Source: Eledone cirrhosa (taxonomy: Eukaryota). From it: a DNA stretch of 64,000 nt. Under the pieces are notes generated by a model. The model was not told where the DNA came from and searched no databases. It saw only the letters and a list, made by a program, of their open reading frames with translations. The stretch's first letter is position 1, and each line of letters starts with the position of its first letter. The position numbers and the translations under genes are program-made. Of the stretch, positions 29,169 to 64,000 are shown one piece after another. The DNA lies in assembly GCA_964016885.1 (NCBI GenBank), contig OZ024742.1, positions 310,310,001 to 310,374,000 of the forward strand. The letters are read 5' to 3'.

Positions 29169-32132
29169 ATGCTTTGGGAGGGTCATGTTGCCAATAAGAA
29201 ACACACGCACCAGAGCTTTCACTTCAATTTATTATAAATTTAGGAATTTATAAATTTCCGGTTGGTTGGTTGGTTCCACAACCAGACGATTGTTCATATA
29301 TTGTCAAAGTTCTTTCGTCACACATTCTGTGACGTCTTCAGTGACTAGGGATTATTTTCTTCTTTTTGTTTTTTGTGCCTCTCCTTTGTTCTGTCCTACG
29401 CCATCTTGTTTTTGTGTGTGTTGTGTGCTTAGTTTGCGCATGTGTTACATCCGGGTGTCTGTGTGTGTTTATATTTGTTTATTTATTTGTTTGTTTGTTT
29501 ATTTACATGTTACTGGTTGGTTGTTTGTTCTCTGTGTGTGTTTTCATTTTGTCCTTAATTGTAAGTTGTGATGTTGCTGTTCCATTCATGTTTTCTATTT
29601 AATTTTGGTTGGAGTTCATTTATGTTTATTGCCTCTGTGATTTGTCTAAACATTGCGTCTTTTCTGTGTGTAGATTCTATTTTTATTTCTATGTTCTCTA
29701 ATTTACCCTTATTTTCTATTTTAGCATGTTGGTGGAGTACAGATGATTCTTTACTATCTTGAAGCTCTCGCAAGTGTTCATTTATCCGTTCCCTATACTA
29801 CGAGCTGTCTCACCTATGTACACTATATTCTTATCTCTACATTGTCCTTCAGTACATCTTATGCTATATACTACATTTCTAGTTTTACAGTTAATATAGG
29901 GGCTTAGTTTACAGATTATACATTTCTTATCTCTACAGGGAGGTCTTTGAAAAGGGTATGTATTGCTAATAAGTGTTTTTATGGAGGTACCTGGTCTTTC
30001 TACTATCTTAATATTGAGTTTATGTATATCTAGGGCCCTTCTAAATTTATAAACTAATTCACCTCTAGGGGCTGTATCGATGAACATTACACTCTGGTAT
30101 TTATTGCTATCATACCATGAGTTTATTCTATTAACCTTATTCCTAGTTATTTCTATTCTATTCTAAAATTTGCTCCTATACAAGGGGAAGGTCCCATTTG
30201 TATCATTATTTACCATTTTTTCCCATTTGGTTCTGGCTCCTCTATATACTCTAATTGTAACCAGAGAACTGCATACGGTGGATGAAGTGTTGTATGTGTC
30301 TCTCTAGTTCTTTGGGGTTGTACATGCGGGACACGCTTCTCATCACCCGTACCAAATCCGCAATCAGTATGTTGATTTTGGTATGGTCCGAAACAGCTAA
30401 GTTTCGGTTGATCAGATATTTGGAAGTCATGGGTTTGGTATAATGGGAATGGAGGATTTGTTTTTTGTTATTAATGGTATCTAACCAGAGCTCTGTGTCT
30501 AGTACAGGTAGTCGATGGTTGGGGTGTTTGCTTGGGTAGTCTATAGTAACTCTAATACTCTGGTGGATGGAGTTAGCTATTTGCTGGATGCATTCCATGG
30601 TGTTTTTCTCTAATTCCTGACTGTTCTCTAGTGGGGGTGGTTTTACTACGGTGTTTATATCATCAACGTAGCGGGAGTACATTATCAGGGTTATGAAATT
30701 GCTGTCTTCTAATTGTTCTTTAAGTTTAAGTTCAAGTCTATTGTCTCACCATACCATGAATAGGTTAGCTATGTCACCTGCAATGCTAACTCCAATGGCT
30801 GCTCCCTCCTCTTGGGCATATGTTTTTCCATTAAATTTGAACATATGTTCCTTAAGGGTTAATTTTATACTGCCCCCCACCGCATGTGCAATCATTTTCT
30901 TTAGTTCATCGTGGTTTTCGGGGGTCCGTATAGCTCCGGTCCACCCGTTCCATCTATCTGTGTGGGTTTTCTTGACCATTGAGGTAATGGTAGGTGGTCT
31001 GCCTCTTGCTGGTCTTGTAGGGCACAGGTTGCTAAGGTCATATGTATCTAGATAATCATTACTATAAGTAAGTTTAAGTAGGAGTCCCAGCTCACTGGTA
31101 TCAATCCCATGGAATTCAACATTGCTCTCACTGATCATTTCTACGCATTTCTCCACAGCAAAATCCACGTCAATAGATGGATATAGGGACACAACATCCA
31201 TATTACCTATTATGCGGTTTGTTAGGTCCCTAGATCGGTTACTTTCGCTGATTCTGCTGAGGAGGTCCTCCGTGCTGTCGTATATATCTGGGGACATTTC
31301 AATGATGGGGCGTATGATCATGGAGAGGAAGTAGGAAAGTCTGTAGTTACTAGCAATGTTAGCTCCACAGACTGGCCGTGTTGCTGGTCCTGTGACAGGG
31401 TCACTGCTCGTTTTATGGTCTTTTCGAAGCCCTTACAACGCTGGCACGTCATTATTCCAGGCCTGGAAGTTGTTGGCAGTCCTTTTGTTGGGCTGCATTA
31501 TATTTGTCCCCATCATCATATGGGCATTGAGGGTTTTTTCCCTATCCTCATGCTCTTGTGGTGTTACTTCTCTTGTGTTAGTGATGTGGGTTTGCATTGC
31601 CTGGATGTAGTTTGACAGACTGGCAACCGACATTCTGCCAGACTTGTCTGTTGGAAAGCATGCAATGTCTCCATTACGCGAGAGCTGCATGAGCTTACGC
31701 AAGCCATTTGCAGATTTTTCTCCCAGTTGCTGGGCCTCCATTCTATTTTGCATCTTGCTATACTGTTCTATAATATTTCTAAGTTTAGATCTGGCTATAC
31801 TAAATCGTGCTTCTGTTTGTTTATCGACCAGCGATGGCAATTGCGTGCGTTTGTTAAAAGCTAAAGTCGTGGCGTGGACTCGACGTAGGTCGAAGGACAT
31901 ATCGGAAGGATTATAAAAAGTAGAGTTCCAGGCTGCTGCTTTATGTGTACTATTGCTATTGTTATTGTTAGTTGTGTTGTTTCTATTTCTATTTCTATTT
32001 CCACCAACAGCCTCATGGTGAAAGCAACTGGTGCGTGTGTTTCTTATTGGAAACATGACCCTTCCAAAGCATAACAATATAGGTTTCAATACACGTTTTC
32101 AGATAAAGAATCTTGCTAAACAAATTCAGAAA

Positions 32133-35156: not shown

Positions 35157-36707
35157 CTTCTCTTAGGTCAGTGTTGTTTGTTTGGGTGTTGTTGTTGTTC
35201 CACTCATTCTTTCTGTTTAGCTTTGGTCTTCTAATTTCTATTTCACTGGCCTCTCTGATTTGCCTATCTGCTGGGTCATTCCTATGTTTAGATATTATTC
35301 TAATTTCTATGTTGTCTATGTTACCGTCATGTTGTTATCTAGCATGTTCGTATAGTACTGACCCGTTTTTTCGTCCTTTTAGTTCCCCCCAGTGTTGGTC
35401 TATCCTTTCACCTATGCTACGAGCTGTCTCACCTATGTATGTTGTTGTCATGTTTCTGCAAGTACCCTCTGTACATCTTATGCTATAGACTACGTTTCTA
35501 GTTTTACAGTTTATCCGGGGGTTCACCTTACAAATGATACATTTCCTATTGGTACAGTGGGTTTTCTTAAAAGGGTAGGTTTTGCTGATCAGGGATTTTA
35601 TGGTGGTTCCTGGCTTTTCTACCACCTTTATTTTTAAGTGGGTCTTTCTCAGGGCCTTTCTACACTGGTTAGCTAATTTCCCTCCAGGGGTGGCGTCCAC
35701 AAATATGACACTCTGATATCTCTGGTTGTCGTACCATGATGTGGCCTTCCCTATCTTATGTCTAGCCCTATCTAAGCTATTCCATGATTTGCTCCTGTAT
35801 AGTGGGCAAATTCCTTTCATGTCCAGTTCTATGAGGGTCTTATACTTTTCCATGGCTCCTTCGTATACTCTGACTCTGTCTCTTTGGTTGTAGCCAGAGA
35901 ACTGCACGCGGTTGATGAAGTGTTGGATGTGTCCTTCCATTTCTGTTGGGTCGCACATGCTGGACACATTCTTCATCACTCGTACCAAATCTGCGATCAG
36001 AATATTAAACTTAGCACTACTGGACATTGCTGAGTTTTTGAGTATCAGGTATTTGGAGGCCATGGGTTTAGCATAGTGTGAGTGGAGAATTTGGGCTCTC
36101 TCGTCTATAGTGTTAATCCAGAGTTCTGTGTCTAATACAGGTAGTCTATTGTTAGGGTGTTTGGAAGGGAAGTCTATAGTTACAGTTATACTCTGGTGTA
36201 TGGAATTAGCTATCTGCTGGATGCTTTCCATCGTGCTACGTTCTAAATCAAACTTGTTAGTGCTCTCTAGTGGGGGTGTTCTTATAACTATATTGATATC
36301 GTCTACATAACGAGAGTACATGATGAGGTCTATGGAGCTTTCATTAAGGAGATCTTTAAGTCTCCTTTCCCACCATACCATGAAAAGGTTGGCAACATCA
36401 CCAGCTATGCTGACGCCGATGGCTGCTCCCTCATTTTGGGTGTAGATTTTCTCATTGAACTTAAATATGTGTCCCTTTAGGGTAGTTTTGATACTAGCCC
36501 CTATTGCATGTGCGACCATTTTTCTTACCTGATCAGTGTTTTGGGGGGTCCGTATAGCTTTGGTCCACCCAATCCACCTTCCTATGGGAGTCTTTTTAGC
36601 CATTGAGGTTATGGTGGGGGGTCTACCTCTTATAGGTCTACTAGGGCAGAAACATCTAAGGTCATGGCTGTCTAGGTAGTCAGTGTCGTAGGTAAGTCTA
36701 AGTAGGA
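35157..36707 (-). pseudogene. Inverted partial copy of the PLE family 1 ORF (3' half of RT + GIY-YIG) with a premature stop
   Basis: ORF 35335-36720 is nearly identical to the C-terminal half of the 36769 ORF; a CAA>TAA change follows YEHAR. Confidence 0.9.
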
Positions 36708-39700
36708 ACAAGAACAACAAATCCTAAAGTTACCACCAAAATTTGCCATCTACAAAAAGATTAACCCTATGGAATGCAAAACGGAGCTGGAAAAGTGTTT
36801 CACAAAAATACGTTGGAATGCAAAGGTAAACAACAACAACAATAATAACGGTAGTAGTAATATAAACAATAACTCTGGGTATAGAAATAACAGCCATAAC
36901 CATAACAATGGCAGGAAAGTGAGAAATAGTGATAATGGCAATAATACTAGCGATAGACAGAACAACAACAACCACAATAATAATAATAATAGAAACGTTA
37001 ACCACAGACACAGCAACAGTGACCACAGTAGTAATAACGGTAACAATACGAACAACAACAATAAGCACAGTGGTAATAATGGAAATAGTACATGTAGCAA
37101 CATCAACAAAAACAAGAAACATAATAATAGTAACAACCACAATGGTAGAAATAGCAGTAACAACAACAACAATAACGGTGAAGTAAACAACAATACATCT
37201 AGCAATCATAACAATAATAATATTAATGCTAATGATAGAAACAACAACAACCACCATGATAACAATAATAGCAACACACACAACTATGACGATAGAAATA
37301 ACGACAACCCCTTAGAGAAACTATTTTTCAACCCAGCTGACAAAACATATAAGATGGGTAATATCTATCCTACGAGGTTACCCTTTAATAAAAGAGTTTG
37401 CATACCACAGCAAATAGATGACGAGACGGAGGCACAGTTCACCATAGCTAGAAATAAGATTAGACAAGTAGTAGACAGGTACACTATGAGACAGAGCAGA
37501 CCAGAGGCCCAACAACTTGGGATAAAACCTGTAGAAGGCTTGGTTAGCCTCAAGCAGCGCACAAGGGATGGTGAGGTAGTGTGTCTACCCACAGATAAGT
37601 CTGGTAGGATGTCAATAGATAGCATGCCGAACTACATCGAGGCAATGCAACCCCACATCACCAACACGAGCGAAGTTGCACAACTAACACACGATGGGAG
37701 AGAAAAAATCCTCAACGCTCACATGATGATGTGGACTGACATCCTAAAGCCAAGCAGACGCACTGCCAACAACTTCCAGGCGTCTAACAATGGCATACCA
37801 CCCTTGTATGGGCTCCGCAAGGACCACAAGACAGTCGACGACCCGACAGCAGGACCACCAACAAGACCCGTATGCGGAGCTAATATAGCTAGCAACTACA
37901 GGATCTCCTACTTCCTCTCAATGGTTATACGCCCCATAATCAAGATGTCCCCAGATGTATGTGAAAGTACAGAGGACCTCCTCAGCAGAATCAGTGAGTG
38001 CAACAAAAACAGGAGCCTATCCAACTGCATAATAGGCAGCATGGATGTGGTGTCACTGTACCCATCCATTAACATTGATTTTGCTGTGAAAAGATGTGTG
38101 GAGATGATCATTGAGAGTGAGGTGGAGTTCTGCGACGTCGACACAGACGAACTGGGCCTCCTACTTAGACTTACCTACGACACTGACTACCTAGACAGCC
38201 ATGACCTTAGATGTTTCTGCCCTAGTAGACCTATAAGAGGTAGACCCCCCACCATAACCTCAATGGCTAAAAAGACTCCCATAGGAAGGTGGATTGGGTG
38301 GACCAAAGCTATACGGACCCCCCAAAACACTGATCAGGTAAGAAAAATGGTCGCACATGCAATAGGGGCTAGTATCAAAACTACCCTAAAGGGACACATA
38401 TTTAAGTTCAATGAGAAAATCTACACCCAAAATGAGGGAGCAGCCATCGGCGTCAGCATAGCTGGTGATGTTGCCAACCTTTTCATGGTATGGTGGGAAA
38501 GGAGACTTAAAGATCTCCTTAATGAAAGCTCCATAGACCTCATCATGTACTCTCGTTATGTAGACGATATCAATATAGTTATAAGAACACCCCCACTAGA
38601 GAGCACTAACAAGTTTGATTTAGAACGTAGCACGATGGAAAGCATCCAGCAGATAGCTAATTCCATACACCAGAGTATAACTGTAACTATAGACTTCCCT
38701 TCCAAACACCCTAACAATAGACTACCTGTATTAGACACAGAACTCTGGATTAACACTATAGACGAGAGAGCCCAAATTCTCCACTCACACTATGCTAAAC
38801 CCATGGCCTCCAAATACCTGATACTCAAAAACTCAGCAATGTCCAGTAGTGCTAAGTTTAATATTCTGATCGCAGATTTGGTACGAGTGATGAAGAATGT
38901 GTCCAGCATGTGCGACCCAACAGAAATGGAAGGACACATCCAACACTTCATCAACCGCATGCAGTTCTCTGGCTACAACCAAAGAGACAGAGTCAGAGTA
39001 TACGAAGGAGCCATGGAAAAGTATAAGACCCTCATAGAACTGGACATGAAAGGAATTTGCCCACTATACAGGAGCAAATCATGGAATAGCTTAGATAGGG
39101 CTAGACATAAGATAGGGAAGGCCACATCATGGTACGACAACCAGAGATATCAGAGTGTCATGTTTGTGGACGCCACCCCTGGAGGGAAATTAGCTAACCA
39201 GTGTAGAAAGGCCCTGAGAAAGACCCACTTAAAAATAAAGGTGGTAGAAAAGCCAGGAACCACCATAAAATCCCTGATCAGCAAAACCTACCCTTTTAAG
39301 AAAACCCACTGTACCAATAGGAAATGTATCATTTGTAAGGTGAACCCCCGGATAAACTGTAAAACTAGAAACGTAGTCTATAGCATAAGATGTACAGAGG
39401 GTACTTGCAGAAACATGACAACAACATACATAGGTGAGACAGCTCGTAGCATAGGTGAAAGGATAGACCAACACTGGGGGGAACTAAAAGGACGAAAAAA
39501 CGGGTCAGTACTATACGAACATGCTAGACAACAACATGACGGTAACATAGACAACATAGAAATTAGAATAATATCTAAACATAGGAATGACCCAGCAGAT
39601 AGGCAAATCAGAGAGGCCAGTGAAATAGAAATTAGAAGACCAAAGCTAAACAGAAAGAATGAGTGGAACAACAACAACACCCAAACAAACAACACTGACC

Positions 39701-39714
39701 TAAGAGAAGTATAA
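36706..39714 (+). CDS. Penelope-like retroelement (Naiad-like, family 1) polyprotein: Asn-rich insert, RT, Zn-linker, GIY-YIG endonuclease; 5'-truncated
   Basis: 981-aa ORF from 36769; the frame is open back to the inversion junction at 36706 (EQEQQILKLPPKF, resembling the PLE LxLGPKF motif). Motifs: PTDKSG, GLRKDHK, RPVCGA, SMDVVSLYPSI, GAAIG, RYVDD, CxxxxCxxC, VVYSIRC...YIGET, terminal LNRKNEW. Confidence 0.93.
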   Translation, partial: EQEQQILKLPPKFAIYKKINPMECKTELEKCFTKIRWNAKVNNNNNNNGSSNINNNSGYRNNSHNHNNGRKVRNSDNGNNTSDRQNNNNHNNNNNRNVNHRHSNSDHSSNNGNNTNNNNKHSGNNGNSTCSNINKNKKHNNSNNHNGRNSSNNNNNNGEVNNNTSSNHNNNNINANDRNNNNHHDNNNSNTHNYDDRNNDNPLEKLFFNPADKTYKMGNIYPTRLPFNKRVCIPQQIDDETEAQFTIARNKIRQVVDRYTMRQSRPEAQQLGIKPVEGLVSLKQRTRDGEVVCLPTDKSGRMSIDSMPNYIEAMQPHITNTSEVAQLTHDGREKILNAHMMMWTDILKPSRRTANNFQASNNGIPPLYGLRKDHKTVDDPTAGPPTRPVCGANIASNYRISYFLSMVIRPIIKMSPDVCESTEDLLSRISECNKNRSLSNCIIGSMDVVSLYPSINIDFAVKRCVEMIIESEVEFCDVDTDELGLLLRLTYDTDYLDSHDLRCFCPSRPIRGRPPTITSMAKKTPIGRWIGWTKAIRTPQNTDQVRKMVAHAIGASIKTTLKGHIFKFNEKIYTQNEGAAIGVSIAGDVANLFMVWWERRLKDLLNESSIDLIMYSRYVDDINIVIRTPPLESTNKFDLERSTMESIQQIANSIHQSITVTIDFPSKHPNNRLPVLDTELWINTIDERAQILHSHYAKPMASKYLILKNSAMSSSAKFNILIADLVRVMKNVSSMCDPTEMEGHIQHFINRMQFSGYNQRDRVRVYEGAMEKYKTLIELDMKGICPLYRSKSWNSLDRARHKIGKATSWYDNQRYQSVMFVDATPGGKLANQCRKALRKTHLKIKVVEKPGTTIKSLISKTYPFKKTHCTNRKCIICKVNPRINCKTRNVVYSIRCTEGTCRNMTTTYIGETARSIGERIDQHWGELKGRKNGSVLYEHARQQHDGNIDNIEIRIISKHRNDPADRQIREASEIEIRRPKLNRKNEWNNNNTQTNNTDLREV

Positions 39715-45985: not shown

Positions 45986-48900
45986 GATTTCATTTATTGG
46001 CCACAAGGGCCGACATATAGGGGACAATACAAAAGACTGGGACAGTGGGGTTTTACAGAAAAATCAAGTAAACAATATGAATAACAATAACAAAGTAACA
46101 ATAACAAAGAAACAATAAAGTAACAAGAAAATTACAACAAGAAAAAATTCCCCAATAGAGGGGTTGACCACCTAGGGTTCGCTCAGGTACCCCATCAGTC
46201 TTGAACGACCCGACGCTTCGAGAGCACCCTGGAAGGGCACCGCTCTCCTATTCAAATTTACCTACCTACAGCCGCATGATCAGAGTAGGCCCACTCATAC
46301 GGGCCATTCTCGCCACATTCACCGACCTTTCAGCAAATGTACTGGGGGGCAGCACTTCTCTCTCCACCCTCACCTTCCTTTCCAAGTGAAACTTGAAAAA
46401 GTTGATGAGGGATTGACCGAAGAGAAAAGTGTCTGTCTTCAGTCCTTTCAACCTCGTCCACCATACAACCTCTTTCGCTAATGCGACCAGACAGAGGAAA
46501 ATTGCCTGCCCTTCCTGACCAAAAGAAGGCGGCGGGTCGATCTTCACTATGGACTCGGCCGATAGCCGGATCCGTTCTACACGCGACAACAGCTGTTCAA
46601 CATAACTCCACAAGTCAGTAATGCACGGACACTGGACGAGTGCGTAAAGAACGGTTTCGTCGCTCTGCGCGCATCTCAGGCAGGTCCGTCTGACAGCACT
46701 TCCGTGCCTGTAGAGTTATTTCGAACCGGCAGTGCCTACCGGTAGCACTGCCAAGCGAGGGATTTTTGGAAATTATCCATCGTCCCCAGCTCGAAAGTCC
46801 TCCGGTACAGACTGGTTAATTCGACTTCGTTGACTCCCAGAGCCTCTCCGAGTGCATCGTCGTACTTGCCCACCACTAATCCTCTATAGAACTCGAGAGT
46901 GGAAGTTCCACTGACTGCATTGCCCGCCTGGGAGAGGGCAGTGAGTGTCTGGCAACATTCCAGATGCCAGTCACCCAGTCTCGGTCTCTTCTTGACCCAG
47001 GGCTGCAACTCAATCAAAGAAACGAGCTGCGGAAAGGCCCGTCTGACAAACGGCGACCACACCTGTTCACCGTTTAGGCAGAAGATCTGGAGATGCCGCA
47101 GCCTCAGCTGGTGCCTGCGCATCATTAGCCACGGCATGCCCAGCCCTCCACGTAGAGGGTGCTGACCGCAGATGGACCGCCTCACCAGCGGAAACTGACC
47201 CCTCCACAAGAATTTGAAGAGGAGCCGTTCCAAGGGTCGAACGGGGGCAAGGGTCGACAGACAGACGGTATAATGACGGACGCGATGTACGCGTTCGCCA
47301 CCTCCGCCCGACATTTCAGTGATAGCTTCATGCCAACCCATTTATGGGTGAGACTGACTACCCTGCCGTCACCTCGTTCCAATTCTTATCCACTTGGAGG
47401 GCTGGCCCGAACCAAACCCCTAGCAACTTTACCGGTCCGTCCGTCCAGCGCCTAACGACGCTGTTGGACGGCATGGACCTACCACTCCAGGTGCCGAGTT
47501 GCAAGCCCACTGACTTTTCCGGCTTAAGTTTTGCTCCCGTCAACCTTTCATATTCCTCCAATAAGTTGCCGACCACCTCGATTTCTGAGGTGTCCGACAC
47601 CATCACGGTGATGTCGTCCGCATAAGCCGACACAGCCTTTCCGCGTCCCAGTTCGAGCGGGAGGCCCTGCAACAGCTCCAGCTTCCGCAGTAAAGGCTCG
47701 AGAGTCAATACCTACAGAAGGGGGAAGAGAGGGCACCCTTGACGGAACGATCGGGAGACCTGAAACGGTTCCGATAGGTGGCCATTAATTTTGACCATCG
47801 AGCAGGTGCCGCTGTGAATTGCAGCGATCCAGCTTCTGAAGACGGGGCCAAAGCCAGCCGCCTTGAGGACAGCCTCCAAGTACCGATGGTCGACCCTATC
47901 GAATGCTTTCGATTGATCTAAATTGATCAGAGCCCCAACGGAGCAAGGTTTACACCCTACCCTCTCTATGATGTATCGCATTAGGTGGAGATTGTCGTGT
48001 ATGGACCTGGTTGGGATTGCGCAAGTTTGCGCCTCCCCAACCAAATCCCCGACGACAAGCGCCAACCTCTTCGCTAACACCCTGGCCAAAATCTTAAACT
48101 CTGTGTTGAACAGAGTTATGGGCCTGAAATTGTCTAATGTGTCCCTCTTGTTCTCGTCTTTCCTTATCAGCGTCACTACGCCCCGGCTCACAGAACTGGG
48201 AATACTCCCGTTTTGCTGCCAGTTGCAGTAGAGGGCTTCGAGGAGATTGGAGAACAAGTCTGGCATATTTACGTAAAGCTCGTAGGGCAGACCATCCAAA
48301 CCGGGTGACTTTCGCCTCATGCAGCCGACCAGGGCATTTTGAATCTGGGCTGAAGTATTTGGCCTTTCGCAGCGCCCAGCGTCAGCCGTCGAGAGTTGCG
48401 GCACGCCATTGAGGTAGGGACTGCAGTCCGCCACCATCTCTGACCCGCCACTTCCCCGGAACAACCGAGCAAAATGTTGGCGAAAGGCCTCACACATCCT
48501 CACAAATCGCTCAGCTCGTGCCCGTCTCGTGCCCGTCTCGGTCCGTCAAAGACCGAATCGTAGTTTTATTACCGCGCTGCGCCCCTGCCACGCGGGTCCA
48601 TCGAACAGCTTTGGTTCCCTCGTTTCTCAGAGCACGCGCCTTAACTCTGACAATGCAACCTTCGTGTTTCGCATTGAAGAAATGGTCTAATGCCATTCTC
48701 ACCTCTAGCACATCAGTTGCAATGCCACTAGCAATAGCCTCGTCTAACCTATCTACCAACTCCCCCTCCTTTCTATTTTTCTCTAATGCTACTTCTTTGC
48801 TAAACTCTATCGACATTACTCTAATCTCTCTTTTGAGAGCTCCCCACCATCTATTGTTGACGACTCCCCCTGTCAACCTTTTCTTAACTAAATTGTTGAC

Positions 48901-50420
48901 CTGTTCCCAGTAAGCCTTACGTGCCGGAAATGACGTTTAGCTTCCAGTAAAACAGGTCCTAACCTACGCGTCTTATCTAGGTCGACCATACAGATCACAA
49001 ACTTGTGATCTGAATAGGCGACCGTTTCAAAACGTGGACAGCTTACACTATTTCTGTCTATTTTCCTAATGAATATCCTGTCTATATACGATCTAGATGA
49101 CCCTATGCGGTTAGCCCAGGTCCATACTGGCGCATTAGGGAAATCTAGTCGGTACCTGTCAGACAGTTGGAACTGGCTGATCAGGTTCTTAAGGCTTTTG
49201 CACCCCCCGCTCCTATCGTGCGTCTAAGATGCCGTTCCAGTCCCCCGCTAACAGTAAAGGGCGAGACGTACCCAGAAAGGCTTCCAGGCGTCTAAAGGAG
49301 TCCGGCCGTCCTGCCCCAGTAGGAGCATAGACGGCCACCAGTCTAAAGGCACCACTTTCATTATTGTTCACGTCCAGTACCACCAACTTCCCGTCCGCGT
49401 CCCGGAAGATCGACCTTACCTCGAGATCCAGGCCTTTCCTAAACAGCACTGCCACCCCGCCTCCCATTCCCGGCCGGCTAACAGATGCAAAAATCTGATA
49501 GTCGTCGAAAATGGGGGCTAGTGCGCGCGTGTCGGAAATCCTGGTCTCGCTGACTGCAATTACATCCATTTCTATAGACCTGAGGTCGTTGAGCAGGTGA
49601 CCCTGGTTCCAGGACGATCCCAGGTCTCGAACATTTAAACATCCTACTCTTAACACGGCCATGTTGGCAGGTTAAACAGAGAGAGGAAGGTTTACTTACC
49701 TTCCGGGCTCTTGTGAAGGTCGGGTTGTTCGACCTCCATAGTTAGTGGGGTTTCTTTTGGGAACCCCTTTAAAAGTCTTGAAGTGGGTTTTACGTTCGGG
49801 GTTCCCACGTCCCGCGGAAAGCTGTCTCGTATTTCTTTGAATATGTCGAGCGACATTCGCACCAGAACCAAATCTTCCGGCACGTAAATGTGCTCGATTG
49901 AAAAATTTCCCCCTCTTTTTGTATATTTTCACTTCGTGCTACGAGGGCCATCAGTTCCTTGTTGGCCCTCCTGACGAGCACGAAGTTTTGTATGTTTTGT
50001 TGGTGTGATTTTATTTGTTTGCGTGGCTGTGGTGTTGATGGTTTTGGTGGTGTTGTTTTGATTGTATCTGCGTTTGTTGTGAGTGCGGTGTCTATGGTTG
50101 CAGATGTTTGTGTGTATATTTGTTCTTGCGTCTGTTTCGGTTGTTTGCGTTTGGGGGATTCTGGTGATGGTGATGGTGGTGTTGATGTTGGTGTTATTGG
50201 AGAGATGTTTGCGTGGGTGGTGTCTGAGTTTTTTTTATTGTGGGTGCTTTTGTGCTTTGTTGATTTTTTTTTTTTCTTTTTGTGTTTCCTTTTTTGTATT
50301 TTGGGGGATTTGGGATTTCCCTCATTTTCACTACTGGTCGATGAGGGGTATGTGTCTGTAAGTGTGTCTGTATGTCTGTTTATGATTTTATTGGTGTGTG
50401 TATTTGGGGGGGGGGGGGGG
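45986..50420 (-). mobile_element. Degenerate Tx1/L1-clade LINE (family T2), 5'-truncated in ORF1
   Basis: Frameshifted ORF2 pieces from 49662 to 46266 are collinear with the T1 ORF2; an ORF1 remnant spans 49696-50420; the 3' end GCCCTTGTGGCCAATAAATGAAATC runs into (ATT)n(ATG)n. Confidence 0.92.
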
Positions 50421-50459
50421 ATTTGACAGCTATCCTCGTTTGCCCCCTGGGTGGTCAAT

Positions 50460-51190
50460 GGTCAATTCAGATGAACTTAAAACTAATTACGGAATATTCC
50501 AAGGCGACTCATTCCCTCTCCTATGTTGGCACGCTCTCTATCCAATATCAAGTGAGCTCAATAATACGGGATACAGGTATAAGATGAACAGCAACAATAA
50601 TATCGTTAAATATTTGATTTTTAAAAAATATTGTATGACCTAAAATTGTATGTTAAACACGGCCAAGGGTTAGAAGGACTGTGGAGCAATTTAAAAATAA
50701 TATTGGCATGGAATTTGGTCTTAACAAATGCGCCAAAGCAACTTTTAAAAGAGGGAAGCTAACAGAAACACTATAGATACATCCATGCAGGGGTTAGACC
50801 CAGAAACAACTATAAATGTCTTAGCATAAATGAAGGTGATGGAATTAAACACAATCAAATGAAGGAAGGAATATGGAAAGAATATTTCAACAGAGTAAGG
50901 CTGATCCTGAAAACTGAACTAAATTCTAAACACCATTTTCAGGCTATAAACACCTGAGCTGTATCAGTGGTTAGATACAGTTATAACATCATCAATTGGA
51001 ACTTATCTCATTTTTAAAGAATGGACTCAAAAACTGAAAAACTTACAGCCAACAAAATGCATCACCCCAAGGCAGACGTATATCAGATATATTTGCCAAG
51101 ACGAGAAGGAGGAGAGAGCTAATCCAACTTGAACTGTCATACATAATAACTACAATAGACTTATAAACGTATTTAGAGAGTACCAATATC
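50460..51190 (+). mobile_element. Degenerate R4/Dong-like non-LTR RT fragment
   Basis: Broken motifs GIFQGDS, IGMEFGLNKCAK, MHHPKADV..IYLPRREGG. Confidence 0.75.
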
Positions 51191-58623: not shown

Positions 58624-58798
58624 ATTAACACTTAGAATTTAATATTCTATCATACTATTTCATTATAATACCATTATATATTTTAAAGGATTGTAAATAA
58701 ATAAAACGAGTAAATCAGACAAAGTTGGAATTCCTCTTATTAATATAATCTTCTATACACAATCATACACACCCGTGTATATTTACCTATCTATCTAC

Positions 58799-60460
58799 AA
58801 AGACACAACAAACAAAAAAATAACAGTTGAAAATAACATAACATCAGAAAACAAAGCAGACGACAAGATTTCATTTGCACAGAAAACAAAGAAATCTTTG
58901 ACTTATATAGCGGAAAACATTTCAGATGTGGTACGAAGGATCACGGACGCAAAACAATACATAAGTGAAGGTGAGAATGGTATTTTATTGGTAAAAATGC
59001 CTCAAGAATTCACGAAAGACATTGAAAGCCGAACGGTCAAGTTTCGGACCATCAACAACAGTACAAAAAAACCTGAACAGCCTTCTCAAGCAGATATCAA
59101 AACAGTACTCGCAGAAGTACTGAATGAAACAACTTTCATAAGAAAAGACAGACTGTATGGAAGCCTAGCAATTATCATGAAGAACGAATCGGCGGCAAAA
59201 AAATGTGCTTTGTCACCGATTCGTTCGAAAAATTTCACCTTTTATCCATCTTATATGGGGAAAAAAACCCAACGCATATGGCTGGATGCAATGATGCCAG
59301 ATGTGGACTACTGCTGGCTCATAGCTGGCTTCATCGATCCAGTGAATGACAACGTGATTTCCATTGGGAAAACCACAGGCAATGCGTTCAGTGGAACAGG
59401 TATAGAGCTGGTAGTACAAATGAAGCCTGAACGCATCGCCCAAATACCCGACAGAATCCTATTAGAGGACCACGGGTATATAAACATTAGCGTGGAGGGG
59501 AGAAGGCCGTCCTGCCATATCTGTGCAGGCAGAGGGCACCTGAAGGCCGCTTGTCCCCAACTCAACAAAAAGAAAACCCTGCTACCAACACCAGCTCCAC
59601 CACCACCACCACAACAGATAAACAAACAACAAAACTCAGTCCCACCCAACCCGTCCCTCAGTAACACCGCAACACCACCACAACACAAACAGTCACAACA
59701 CATTACCCCAAAACAAAATACAGGCCCACCCAACCTCTCACTCAATAAAACAACACAACCACCGCAGACACAACACACAACACAGTCTAACATAGTGACA
59801 TCCATCTCCCCCACAAAGAAAACCAACACGGAAACATTACCAGCAAACATACCTCTTCCCTCCAACACTGAAGATAACCCAACGAATTCGGAGGAAGAAA
59901 CGGAGTCCTTCAGACAGATTAAAAGGAAAAAAAGAAAACATGTGCAAAACACACAAGGACAAACAACCCCCACCCAAATCGCAACACAATCTAACAAAAC
60001 AGAAAACACCCCTCCAGCAACAAACAAAACCAAACCTGCCCCTCCCCTCTTCGAAACACTCACACCATCGGAAAAAAAGACATTACACTATACTTACATC
60101 AACAGAAACAATAATAAATTAAATGAACTCATATACAATAATCCTTCGGTACAAACCGAAGGTGTAAACTTTGTTTCATCAGAAAACCACCCACATTTAA
60201 AACTAATAAAAATCCCAATGAACCTCTACCAAAAACTAAAAAAGGATTTTAAGGAGGACGTAGGACCACCCTCTGTCAAACCCATAAACCGCGTCCTACT
60301 AAAAAGCTTTCCCCCTCCCCTTCCCCTCCCCAACACAACTCCAAACACCCCAACCCCACCACACACCGACGACCCCACACCACCACAAGACACCCCTTCA
60401 CCCAACACCCCCGACCCCATGGAAGTCGTGCAACCCGAACCCCGGGAAGCGGAAAGGTAG
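58799..60460 (+). CDS. LINE ORF1 (gag-like; CCHC zinc knuckle; Pro/Thr/Gln-rich region)
   Basis: CHICAGRGHLKAAC knuckle. The track's GTG start lies in the flank; the first in-frame ATG is at 58997, so the true start is uncertain or truncated. Confidence 0.85.
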   Translation, partial: KDTTNKKITVENNITSENKADDKISFAQKTKKSLTYIAENISDVVRRITDAKQYISEGENGILLVKMPQEFTKDIESRTVKFRTINNSTKKPEQPSQADIKTVLAEVLNETTFIRKDRLYGSLAIIMKNESAAKKCALSPIRSKNFTFYPSYMGKKTQRIWLDAMMPDVDYCWLIAGFIDPVNDNVISIGKTTGNAFSGTGIELVVQMKPERIAQIPDRILLEDHGYINISVEGRRPSCHICAGRGHLKAACPQLNKKKTLLPTPAPPPPPQQINKQQNSVPPNPSLSNTATPPQHKQSQHITPKQNTGPPNLSLNKTTQPPQTQHTTQSNIVTSISPTKKTNTETLPANIPLPSNTEDNPTNSEEETESFRQIKRKKRKHVQNTQGQTTPTQIATQSNKTENTPPATNKTKPAPPLFETLTPSEKKTLHYTYINRNNNKLNELIYNNPSVQTEGVNFVSSENHPHLKLIKIPMNLYQKLKKDFKEDVGPPSVKPINRVLLKSFPPPLPLPNTTPNTPTPPHTDDPTPPQDTPSPNTPDPMEVVQPEPREAER

Positions 60461-60493
60461 GTCTCTACACTCTCCTTTGGCTCTGCCGCCCAC

Positions 60494-63400
60494 ATGGATG
60501 TGTTAAGAGTAGGATGTTTGAATGCACGTGGCCTGGGCTCAACTTGGAAGCAAGCAAAGCTTCTAAATGACCTCAGGTCATGTAGTATAAATGTAATGGT
60601 TACCTGTGAGACTCGAATCAGCGTCATGCGGCAGCTGGCCCCCACCTTCGATGACTTTGAGGTGCATGCATCTCTCTGTCAACCTGGAGGTGGGGGTGGG
60701 GTTGTCGTGCTGATGCAAAAACACCTGGGTCTTGCCGTACAGGTTGTGCACTCGGACCCGGAGGGTCGTTTGTTGGTGCTAGACGTTGGCAGTAGTGAAA
60801 GTGCGGCCTTGAGACTGGTCGCCGTCTACTCCCCTTTCGGAGCTGAACGGCCCGACTTCTTCCAGCGTTTGGAGACTTTTCTGGGAACGTCGCGTTCCCT
60901 GCTTCTAGCGGGGGATTGGAATGACATCCTAGATGCACGTTGGGACTATGCAGGAGCATGTCCTAATAGAGGGGGGTGTAACAGCCTCAAGGGGTTACTC
61001 GACCGTTTTAACTTGGTCGATAGATATCGACTAGATTTTCCAACTGTGCCTACCTGGACTTGGAGAAACCACAGTGGTCAATCTAGATCGTACTTAGATA
61101 GATTCTTAGTTAGAAGTAAGGATAGGGACATATTAAGCTGTCCAGAAATGCGCACGGTTGGCTACACGGATCACAAATTAGTGACCTGCGTGGTCAATCT
61201 CGAGAAAACACATAGACAGGGTCCCGGTTACTGGAAACTTAATTTGTCTTTACCGGCAAAAGAGACTTACAGAAACCGGATTAGCAGATTAGTTAAGGAG
61301 AGGTTGACGGGTGCAATCGTCAACAACCGATGGTGGGCATCTCTCAAAAGAGAGATTAGAACAGAATCAATAAGTTATAGCAAGATGTTAGCTGCCAATA
61401 GGAATAGAAACGAGAAAGAATTAACAGGTAAATTAGAAGAGGCAATCAAGAGCGAAGATGTGGCCAGAGTGCTGGCATCGAGGACGGCATTGAACCAGTT
61501 TTTCGATGCAAAGCATGAAGGCTGCGTCATTCGAAGTAAAATACGTGCTCTAGGTAATGAGGGGGCCAAAGCCGTTGGATGGGCCCGCGTGACAGAAGCT
61601 AAAAGTGGAAATCGATCCACCATCCGGTCGTTGCAAGACGAAGATGGACGAGTGATCCGGGAGCCTAAGCAGATGTGCGAGGCCTTTCAAAAGCACTTTG
61701 CCCGATTGTTCGGGGGAGGCGAGGGTCCGGGCCGGGGCGTGGATTTCGGTCCATACCTCGACGGCCTGCCGCGTCTCTCGAACAAAGAGGCGGAGTCCTG
61801 CGAGGGACCAATCTCGGCTGATGAGATCGGAGATGCGCTGAGCCAGTGCAGCAGACGCAAATCTCCAGGTCTCGATGGTATACCTTACGAACTTTATTTA
61901 GCAATGCCGGTCTTCTTCTCCGAACTCCTCGAAGCGGTCTACTGCAATTGGCAGCAGAACGGGAGAATTCCTTGTTCTGTAGCCAAGGGCGTAGTCACGC
62001 TGGTGAGGAAGGACGAGAACAAGGGGGATAGTATAAATAATTTTCGGCCCATAACCCTGCTAAACACAGAGTTAAAGATTTTGGCCAAGGTGTTAGCAAA
62101 GAGGTTGGCGCTTGTCGTGGGTGGCCTGGTGGGAGATGCGCAGACATGTGCTATCCCATCCAGGTCCATTCACGATAACCTCCACCTCATGCGATACATC
62201 ATAGAGAGGGTTGGCAACAAACCCGGCTTCGGTGGGGCCCTGATCAACTTGGATCAGTCTAAGGCCTTCGATAGGGTCGACCATGGTTACCTGGATGCGG
62301 TGCTAGCGGCGGCTGGGTTCGGTCCTGTTTTCAGAGGCTGGATCACTGCCCTACATAGCAACCACATCTGTTCTAGGATCAAGGTGAACGGCTACCTTTC
62401 GAAGCCGTTCGAAATCACACGATCCATTCGACAGGGGTGCCCTCTCTCCTCCCTTCTGTACGTATTGACTCTCGAGCCTTTACTGAGGAAGTTGGAGTTG
62501 TTGCAGGGTATCCCCCTGGAACCAGGATTGAGCAAAGCGGTGTCGGCCTACGCCGATGACGTAACAGTAATGGTATCAACCGACTCGGAGATCGAGGCGA
62601 TCGGTACCTTACTGGAGGAGTACGAAAGGTTGTCAGGAGCGAAACTGAACCGGGAAAAATCCATCGGGCTGCAACTCGGAACGTGGAGAGGCAGACCGAT
62701 GCCTCCCGATGGTGTCGTCGGACACTGGACGGAGGGCCCGGTAAAGTTGCTTGGGGTCTGGTTTGGACCGGACCTCCAGGTGGAAAAGAACTGGAACGAG
62801 GTTACGAACAAGGTGTTTGCACTAACCCAGAAATGGGCCAAGTGTAAGCTGTCCCTAAAAGGCCGGGCGGAGGTGGCGAACATTTACATAGCGTCCGTCA
62901 CTTACTACCGCCTGACTGTCGTGCCTTGCCCTAAGGAAACACTCACCACCATGGAACGCATGCTCTTCCAATTTCTTTGGAAGAAGCGTCCTCCTATGGT
63001 GAGAAGATCCATCTGCTGCCAACAACCTTCGAAAGGAGGGCTGGGGATGCCGTGGTTGATGATGCGTAGGCACGCATTAAGGCTACGGCACCTACAGGTA
63101 TTCCTCACTGGTCAACCGGTGTGGGCTCCGTTCGTGAAACGAGCCTTTCCGAGACTCGTCTCACTCACCGAGCTACAGTCCTGGGTCAAGCAAAGATCCG
63201 GAAAACTGGGAGACTGGCACACTGAGTGTGCTCAGGCGCTCAGGGCTCTCTGGCAAGCGGGCCGGGCCATCGGTGGAGAATCCACCTCATCATTCTATAG
63301 AGGGCTGGTGGCTAGCAGGGGCGATGACACCCTTGGAGAGTCGCTGGACATGGAAGAAGACGAACTGGCCAGCCTGTTCGGTAGGACTTTCGGCCCAGGA

Positions 63401-63931
63401 CCAATGGACAACTTCCAGAAGTCACTGGCCTGGCAGTGCTACCGAGGGGCTCTACCCGTTCGAGAGAGGCTCTACAGACACGGGCGCCCGGGCAGGGATC
63501 CCTCAAAAAAGATTTGCCCTAGATGCGTGCGTCACGAAGAAACCGTGGCGCACGCATTGGTGCAATGTCCGGGCGTGGCTGATCTGTGGGGCTACGCCGA
63601 ACAACTGCTGTCGCGGGTGGCGCCGATTAAATTGACAGCCGAGTCCGTGATGACAATCAAACCGCCTCCCCTCTTCACAAAGGAAGCAAAGGCGGTTTTT
63701 CTGTGCGTAATAGCCATGTTGAAAGAGGTTGTTTGGTGGACACGATTGAAAGGTCTGAGGTCAGGCAACTTCCTCTCTGGCCATAGTCTGGTCTACTTCT
63801 TCCGATATCACTTCGGAAGAAGGATAAGAATGGAGAGAGAGGTGCTTGGCCACAGGCAGTTTTATGAAAGGTGGGTGATAGTGGCGAGAATGGCTCGTGT
63901 AAATGGGCCTTCTCTGTATACCATCCTGTAG
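60494..63931 (+). CDS. LINE ORF2: AP-like endonuclease, reverse transcriptase, C-terminal Cys/His motif
   Basis: 1145 aa: LNARGL, GDWN, SYLDRF, TDH; KSPGLDG, NFRPITLLN, DQSKAFD, RQGCPLS, YADD; CPRC...HALVQC. Confidence 0.96.
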   Translation: MDVLRVGCLNARGLGSTWKQAKLLNDLRSCSINVMVTCETRISVMRQLAPTFDDFEVHASLCQPGGGGGVVVLMQKHLGLAVQVVHSDPEGRLLVLDVGSSESAALRLVAVYSPFGAERPDFFQRLETFLGTSRSLLLAGDWNDILDARWDYAGACPNRGGCNSLKGLLDRFNLVDRYRLDFPTVPTWTWRNHSGQSRSYLDRFLVRSKDRDILSCPEMRTVGYTDHKLVTCVVNLEKTHRQGPGYWKLNLSLPAKETYRNRISRLVKERLTGAIVNNRWWASLKREIRTESISYSKMLAANRNRNEKELTGKLEEAIKSEDVARVLASRTALNQFFDAKHEGCVIRSKIRALGNEGAKAVGWARVTEAKSGNRSTIRSLQDEDGRVIREPKQMCEAFQKHFARLFGGGEGPGRGVDFGPYLDGLPRLSNKEAESCEGPISADEIGDALSQCSRRKSPGLDGIPYELYLAMPVFFSELLEAVYCNWQQNGRIPCSVAKGVVTLVRKDENKGDSINNFRPITLLNTELKILAKVLAKRLALVVGGLVGDAQTCAIPSRSIHDNLHLMRYIIERVGNKPGFGGALINLDQSKAFDRVDHGYLDAVLAAAGFGPVFRGWITALHSNHICSRIKVNGYLSKPFEITRSIRQGCPLSSLLYVLTLEPLLRKLELLQGIPLEPGLSKAVSAYADDVTVMVSTDSEIEAIGTLLEEYERLSGAKLNREKSIGLQLGTWRGRPMPPDGVVGHWTEGPVKLLGVWFGPDLQVEKNWNEVTNKVFALTQKWAKCKLSLKGRAEVANIYIASVTYYRLTVVPCPKETLTTMERMLFQFLWKKRPPMVRRSICCQQPSKGGLGMPWLMMRRHALRLRHLQVFLTGQPVWAPFVKRAFPRLVSLTELQSWVKQRSGKLGDWHTECAQALRALWQAGRAIGGESTSSFYRGLVASRGDDTLGESLDMEEDELASLFGRTFGPGPMDNFQKSLAWQCYRGALPVRERLYRHGRPGRDPSKKICPRCVRHEETVAHALVQCPGVADLWGYAEQLLSRVAPIKLTAESVMTIKPPPLFTKEAKAVFLCVIAMLKEVVWWTRLKGLRSGNFLSGHSLVYFFRYHFGRRIRMEREVLGHRQFYERWVIVARMARVNGPSLYTIL

Positions 63932-64000
63932 GTAAAGAAGTAAAGGAGAGGGGAGCACCTTCTCCATGTGCTCCCCGGGCAAAGGATTGCACACTTTTTC

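Follow-up and report, generated by a model that had tools for sequence, protein, structure and literature searches.

The window analysed here, a stretch of 64,000 nucleotides of the Eledone cirrhosa genome (contig OZ024742.1 of assembly GCA_964016885.1, positions 310,310,001 to 310,374,000 of the forward strand), ends in a Tx1-like long interspersed nuclear element (LINE) with two open reading frames, ORF1 and ORF2. The signals at the borders of its ORF2, a conserved splice donor and the arms of a long-range RNA helix, are the subject of this report. All the elements studied and all the counts given are from this one genome (3.0 Gb); the family of the window copy is named A, and the other families are lettered B, C, D, E, F, G, H, J, etc. 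The window copy is 5′-truncated at about 58797, without a 5′ untranslated region (UTR) and without the ATG of ORF1, which in full family-A copies encodes 625–626 amino acids. The translated ORF1 frame contains a zinc knuckle of the pattern C-x2-C-x4-H-x4-C, and a Pfam scan of ORF1 gave no match. The ORF2 frame is open from 60461 to 63931, with its ATG at 60494, and matches the Pfam domains Exo_endo_phos, RVT_1 and zf-RVT, its closest relative among solved structures being the L1 ORF2p (E 6e-50). Downstream of the window, the 3′ UTR reaches AATAAA and TCTA repeats, which are followed by a second copy in tandem. The element has no long terminal repeats (LTRs), and both truncated and full copies are present in the genome.

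The 24-base junction at the end of ORF1 of family A was found in 587 exact copies genome-wide, and 19 fetched copies of this family were 99.4–99.9% identical to the window copy. In 13 out of the 13 family-A copies shown, (TCTA)n or TA-rich repeats flank both ends, and (ATT)n follows the copies of families B and C. The element is a young and very active Tx1-like LINE, which from its domains and target preference can be grouped with the microsatellite-targeting LINEs of the Tx1 group. It resembles the Tx1-clade families Kibi, with target (TC)n, Koshi, with (TTC)n, and the crocodilian (TTCC)n families as these are described in PMC4494074: all have two ORFs, APE endonuclease, reverse transcriptase and C-terminal zinc finger, and a zinc-knuckle ORF1, and they share insertion in microsatellites, here (TCTA)n for A and (ATT)n for B and C, and tandem arrays. 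In Octopus vulgaris, L1-Tx1 is among the recently active LINEs, with splicing unmentioned in the main text of that study (PMC13282606). A degenerate motif of the ORF2 start occurred 11,736 times, versus 29 for its reversed control. Outside this genome only two related proteins were found (58% and 63% identity, the 58% one from Argonauta hians), and two metagenome scans for relatives of the element gave nothing. For the comparisons that follow, 18 elements were used, standing for about 13 families. They split into two clades, with an ORF2 DNA identity of about 70% between clades in a tree made of own-genome elements only, and the ORF1 proteins of sister elements are mutually 28–45% identical.

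According to the original prediction, ORF2 could be removed as a precise intron with reconstruction of the last codon and stop of ORF1, and as a statement about the sequence this was exact. ORF1 ends with GAA AGG TAG GT at 60452-60462, the first intron base being G60457; ORF2 ends with CTG TAG (stop at 63929-63931), followed by G TAA (63932-63935); and removal of 60457-63931 (3475 nt) gives GAA AGG TAA, i.e. an unchanged ORF1 end with the Arg codon and the stop rebuilt. A point absent from that prediction is that the same five bases, AGGTA, stand at both ends of the putative intron, so that a plain deletion or a template switch of the reverse transcriptase would mimic the splice.

Concerning the donor, splice sites were scored by pyrimidine content and by the general textbook consensus. 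At the first 30 loci, chosen by the ORF2 motif alone, G/GTAAGT or G/GTAGGT (the slash marks the cut) was present at the ORF1 end in 28. Donor positions −1 to +6 fit the consensus in 17–18 of the 18 elements, while positions −6 to −3 and from +7 onward are variable. The donor is in phase 2 in families A, D, E, J, B and H (Arg-stop). Families C and G have it in phase 1 (Gly-Lys-stop), and family F has it in phase 0, with ORF1 continuing 12 codons past it; for decayed copies the phase was assigned by peptide likeness to intact sisters. Since the motif survives these frame changes, it must be constrained as RNA, and it is a real RNA-level signal, beyond chance. The evident partner of a donor-type RNA motif is U1. 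Other donor-like sites scoring 8/9 or better number 1–5 per element, and a donor near the element 5′ end was not seen as a common feature in a rough scan of 12 elements with approximately placed 5′ ends. In clade 2 (L039, L097, L098, L100, L089, L101) there is a second strong donor-like sequence, AAG/GTAAGT or ACG/GTAAGT, about 305–316 nt past the donor in endonuclease coding sequence, possibly a codon effect only.

Another feature of the region is a predicted long-range helix of 50 bp, hereafter the clamp, in which the stretch from donor position +7 through the ORF2 ATG is paired with the final 24 bases of ORF2 together with the initial 27 bases of the 3′ UTR, and which sets the ORF2 AUG opposite the ORF2 stop. 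The duplex between the arms of the window copy was estimated at −45.8 kcal/mol. The mean was −42.8 kcal/mol with cognate arms versus −35.0 with arms swapped between families, and shuffled arms gave about −19 to −30. In 13 out of 18 elements no other window of the element outscored the cognate arm, the exceptions being L015 of family A (inner window −47 versus −45), three decayed copies and the recombinant L038. The start of the helix falls at donor +7 to +9 in 16/18 elements. When 17 fixed pair positions around the AUG and the stop were considered in 13 representatives, 146 of the 221 cells paired, more than in 5000/5000 shuffles, 4999/5000 within-clade shuffles and slid controls (65–94), a statistic inflated by relatedness and by a register picked from the same sequences. 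A search of the whole element against Rfam at gathering score gave 0 matches, either to group II or to other curated structured RNA. Judging from the comparison of elements, the conserved U1-type donor and the covarying clamp around ORF2 can be considered a real and unusual anatomy.

The coordinates of these and other features are summarized in Table 1.

Table 1. Features of the window bearing on the organization of ORF1 and ORF2 (window positions)
Feature	Position	Strand	Remarks
TCTA target repeat at 5′ junction	58787..58797	+	window sequence
ORF1, 5′-truncated	58797..60460	+	one CCHC zinc knuckle; terminates Glu-Arg-stop; frame open 58697-60460
5′ splice donor, predicted U1 site AAG/GTAGGT	60454..60462	+	overlaps ORF1 stop; cut before 60457
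5′ arm of predicted helix	60463..60520	+	pyrimidine-rich spacer, Kozak context, ORF2 ATG, first codons
ORF2, 1145 aa	60494..63931	+	APE endonuclease, reverse transcriptase, C-terminal zinc finger
3′ arm of predicted helix	63899..63956	+	last ORF2 codons, stop, purine-rich 3′ UTR start
Candidate 3′ splice site	63908..63932	+	AG = ORF2 stop (63930-63931)
Start of 3′ UTR	63932..64000	+	full 3′ UTR about 210 nt, continues beyond window (L014:5932-6170)
TAA, would-be ORF1 stop after splice	63933..63935	+	window sequence
Decayed sister element, family C	46000..50460	−	donor AAG/GTAAGT, first intron base 49699, phase 1; ORF2 stop AG ends 46266; same helix, duplex −51.4 kcal/mol

At the other border, an observation suggestive of splicing is the reading phase of the would-be junction. 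A stop no more than one codon after the join was present in 8/12 families in the phase of the donor versus 3/24 tests in other phases (Fisher p 0.002), a comparison that omits family B, which has no AG, and the recombinant L038, and whose independence is limited to two clades. The background of a stop within one codon was 25/663 positions. In clade 1 (phase 2) the stop is read as G-TAA or G-TGA, and in clade 2 (phase 1) it is provided by four different sequences. This enrichment in the phase of the donor fits an ORF1-only spliced RNA. Pairing within the clamp explains it in part only: in five clade-1 elements the last A of the phase-matched stop is a helix mismatch (CA in four, AA in one, in the fixed register), so that pairing does not account for the stop there, while in E this A has been replaced by the G that pairs. 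In families E and D, a second AG seven bases upstream would end ORF1 as Ser-Leu-stop, an observation made post hoc.

The interpretation that we favour, tentatively and at somewhat less than an even chance, is that ORF2 is a retained intron (60457-63931) whose removal, gated by the clamp, would occur in a fraction of the transcripts and yield an mRNA with ORF1 alone. From the donor conserved in three phases, the complementary and covarying arms and the phase-matched stops, we infer U1 binding, helix formation in cells, the splice and the resulting ratio, in a scheme as follows. U1 would bind the donor during transcription, with the pyrimidine spacer still single-stranded. The 3′ arm would emerge about 3.4 kb later, either to pair with the spacer or to be caught by the spliceosome. 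Upon pairing, the intron would be retained, with acceptor and AUG hidden, and the product would be a template RNA with low ORF2 output. Upon splicing, the donor would be joined to an AG that either belongs to the ORF2 stop or precedes it by a few bases, producing an ORF1-only RNA with a stop at the junction. The isoform ratio would supply the ORF1 excess needed by LINE particles, and the spliced RNA, without ORF2 in cis and without the clamp, must be a poor template if the lack of copies (see below) is to be accounted for. A wider proposal, more speculative and possible rather than probable, is that ORF2 is a retained spliceosomal intron throughout one LINE lineage, in which a start-to-stop helix decides between ORF1-only mRNA and full-length template, throttles ORF2 initiation, shields the RNA from nonsense-mediated decay (NMD) and marks the sole RNA that is copied.

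Several observations weigh against the retained intron, most of them related to the terminal AG of ORF2, whose role as an acceptor is doubtful. The original prediction described this acceptor as pyrimidine-rich, a trait that exceeds chance only moderately: in family A it ranks 3 of 98 YAG sites by pyrimidine content, and the terminal AG ranks 1–8 of about 100–130 YAG sites in 9/16 elements possessing one. However, when conservation times pyrimidine content was scored over the 18 elements, six internal ORF2 YAG columns outscored the terminal AG, leaving it only in seventh place, and its sequence doubles as a helix arm. Unlike the donor, the acceptor is not conserved in all families: the ORF2 stop is TAG in 15/18 elements, GAG in one decayed copy and TAA in both representatives of family B. 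The latter is the most abundant family (26–28 among the first 100 listed ORF2 starts), and it keeps a perfect donor. The last 12 codons of ORF2 display no excess of synonymous conservation (72nd percentile). In 15/18 elements the G of the terminal AG pairs with the Kozak C−4, the A never pairing, so the conservation of the AG needs no splicing. In E1, E2 and H, the join would lengthen ORF1 by 41, 70 and about 99 or more codons, respectively, and the clamp appears in the whole-RNA folds of D, C2 and B yet is missing from that of family A itself. It seems reasonable to interpret that much of the look of the acceptor can follow from pairing, and the phase-matched stop only partly. The predicted splice to an ORF1-only mRNA is thus favoured by a donor conserved across families and frames and by the enrichment of phase-matched stops, and disfavoured by an acceptor that is lost in family B and that elsewhere lies in a predicted helix able to explain its sequence.

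The search for spliced copies adds to these adverse points. According to the original prediction ORF1-only copies could arise in the genome, and none appeared in any genome search: neither among the 587 exact family-A junctions nor in the gapped searches of clade 1 and of families B, C and G was there an ORF2-less copy. In family A, three junction variants were all point changes running on into ORF2, no copy had another base after the exon end, and the four variants upstream of the 3′ UTR were preceded by ORF2 in three cases and corresponded to a truncated insertion in the other. For clade 1, the gapped pattern (able to recover 5/9 representatives when joined in silico) gave one match, an ORF2 end; the one for family B (detecting 2/2) gave 0 matches; and the one for families C and G (detecting 5/5, although in one of them the donor was set 4 bases off) gave four unrelated matches. 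In family B, 70/70 copies with a non-G base after the exon end were point changes or deletions. Exact patterns miss older copies. The 3′ UTR would be entirely present in a spliced RNA, and mobilisation of other RNAs in trans by Tx1 proteins is reported in PMC4494074; the absence of copies therefore speaks against an ORF1-only RNA being abundant in the germ line, unless copying is restricted to cis or depends on the clamp. Two ORF1 protein searches aimed at spliced C-termini also gave nothing. No donor-to-acceptor joint was present among the best 15 of 170 joints on the element in contigs of X1, X2, X5 and X6, nor were there joints when X1, X5 and X6 contigs were compared with a tandem stretch holding both sites; the kind of these runs is not on record, and both results count neither way. 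Three candidate loci were rejected. L037, which starts at the acceptor, is not a host exon spliced in, since it has the 21-bp target duplication of a truncated insertion, and L110 and L137, which join the ORF1 end to inner ORF2, are deletions at short common words without an AG end.

The main alternative, although rather unlikely in our estimation, is that U1 binds the donor and the splice is rare or absent. The clamp would loop out ORF2, hide its AUG and bring the poly(A) end beside the ORF1 stop for protection from NMD, the U1 site, placed by the fold at about 200 nt from the terminal AATAAA, would modulate nuclear retention or the formation of the 3′ end, and the acceptor look would be a by-product of pairing with the Kozak context. 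The persistence of the donor in family B after loss of the acceptor, the failure to find spliced genomic copies and the pairing of the acceptor bases in the predicted helix would all be expected. There are also precedents for its parts, as in EVD, a Ty1/copia element of Arabidopsis, U1 has a splicing-independent anti-termination role (PMC5580714), and in reporter work a poly(A) tail folded near the stop suppresses NMD (PMC2689704). On the other hand, the phase-matched stops, some of them at helix mismatches, are left unexplained, and ORF2 offers merely 0–3 A(A/T)TAAA hexamers to be suppressed. Furthermore, leaving a perfect donor unused generally carries a cost for RNA export.

An improbable variant is that the donor is spliced to a different acceptor, either an internal ORF2 site with early termination as in copia elements or an exon downstream of the element. 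An RNA lacking the 3′ UTR would leave no retrocopies, which would account for the missing copies as well as for family B, and conserved internal YAG columns do occur at ORF2 nt 83, 415, 1841 and 2807 (17–18/18). These columns, however, sit in conserved coding sequence, ORF2 contains no conserved poly(A) hexamer A(A/T)TAAA (0 in D, E1 and B), and no such joint was among the best 15 of the 170 contig joints from runs whose kind is not on record. There is very little to recommend a tiny intron from the same donor to an AG within the codon of the fifth ORF2 residue, an Arg, with removal of the ORF1 stop and fusion of ORF1 to ORF2: it would be in frame in phase-2 families (51 nt in A, 52–53 nt in B) and would suit family F, with ATA instead of the ORF2 ATG, but it would measure only 39 nt in D, family F has no phase-0 AG, the region is paired in the predicted helix, and an RNA that would mobilise itself in cis has left 0 copies in A and 0/70 candidates in B. 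Hardly credible, too, is the view that U1 plays no part and that stop-codon context and shared ancestry produced the motifs as by-products: even though the families all belong to a single genome and to two clades, and donor-like sites scoring 8/9 also arise from codons inside ORF2, the octamer persists through frame changes and indels on both sides while its neighbours diverge.

Returning to the retained intron, its closest parallel in function would be with EVD, in which a U1 donor located close to where the structural gene ends is likewise better conserved than the acceptor, and in which a U1-dependent spliced subgenomic GAG RNA is the proposed source of excess structural protein, U1 acting also without splicing (PMC5580714). 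EVD differs in being an LTR element with a short intron and premature termination, while the putative intron here is the whole 3.5-kb ORF2 with the 3′ UTR kept; no long-range clamp is mentioned in the part of the EVD report available (PMC5580714). Of the features of copia-type elements, the LINE has the U1 donor conserved where the structural ORF ends, and it lacks the combination of a short intron with an internal poly(A) signal close by, there being no conserved A(A/T)TAAA in ORF2 (canonical hexamers only). By analogy, the proposed splice would work like the copia subgenomic GAG RNA without being a member of that system, given the lack of LTRs and of a short intron with early termination.

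Splicing within the LINE transcript that separates the ORFs is also reported for human L1, and L1 spliced RNAs can leave genomic copies (PMC2896524, PMC5860796). In the human L1 SpORF2 RNA, splicing removes ORF1 and keeps ORF2 (PMC2896524), the opposite of what is proposed here, where ORF2 would be removed and no spliced copies were found. In SpIREs splicing is described as a dead end (PMC5860796), in contrast with the conserved feature of the present element. The ORF1-only, non-autonomous HAL1 (half-L1) is what the proposed splice would produce if retrotransposed (PMC5753468), although such copies were not found here. For the Tx1 microsatellite families, the literature search revealed neither an intron that spans ORF2 nor a long-range clamp, nor a donor placed at the ORF1 stop, and in the literature outside subscription papers no ORF2-spanning intron or start-to-stop clamp was found reported in a LINE.

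These signals bear on two questions about two-gene LINEs: how a single RNA yields abundant ORF1 protein but little ORF2 protein, and how it avoids decay when 3.7 kb follow the first stop. A young family whose near-intact copies number in the thousands offers two mutable signals, the U1 site and the start-to-stop helix, whose roles are separable. Should the splice be true, it would be a LINE counterpart of the copia subgenomic RNA; should it be untrue, a conserved U1 site and an RNA clamp with a non-splicing job would also be unusual for a LINE.

Other observations concern the organization of the families. Full elements form head-to-tail arrays with a spacing of about 5.8 kb, sometimes of mixed families (C1:168106309-168117974, C1:348919615-348931308, C1:26573008-26590648; L014), because each copy ends in the target repeat, and the array copies have no poly(A) tail after AATAAA. 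Modules are exchanged between families (L038, L041, L050, L095): the same ORF2 is found with different ORF1s, the switch falling right at the donor, and also with different 3′ UTRs, the switch falling directly after the ORF2 stop; loose contig ends lie at L014:5933 in runs X1 and X5. In the recombinant L038 the clamp is weaker (−35 versus −44 to −50). Despite low overall identity, the 3′ UTRs of all families have in common the hairpin-like motifs GAGCAC...GTGCTC and CCCC-TATT-GGGG (or GAGG) and the word TTACTCG or TTACACG, which are candidates for ORF2p recognition. Family F (L096, L091; also L072, L081, L068) is apparently young, with ORF1 open over 613 codons and ORF2 open over 1139 codons past the motif. 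In this family ATA replaces the ORF2 ATG and overlaps the ORF1 stop in the −1 frame, so that ORF2 must start at a non-AUG codon or by frameshift, or be supplied in trans.

Elsewhere in the window, 35335-39714 and 30746-32098 contain reverse-transcriptase frames ending in a GIY-YIG-like motif, Penelope-like by eye, 35335-36723 being a tandem repeat of part of 36706-39714. The segment 4133-5168, a simple repeat of 1 kb rich in CAC/TAC, has four frames open and is probably non-coding.

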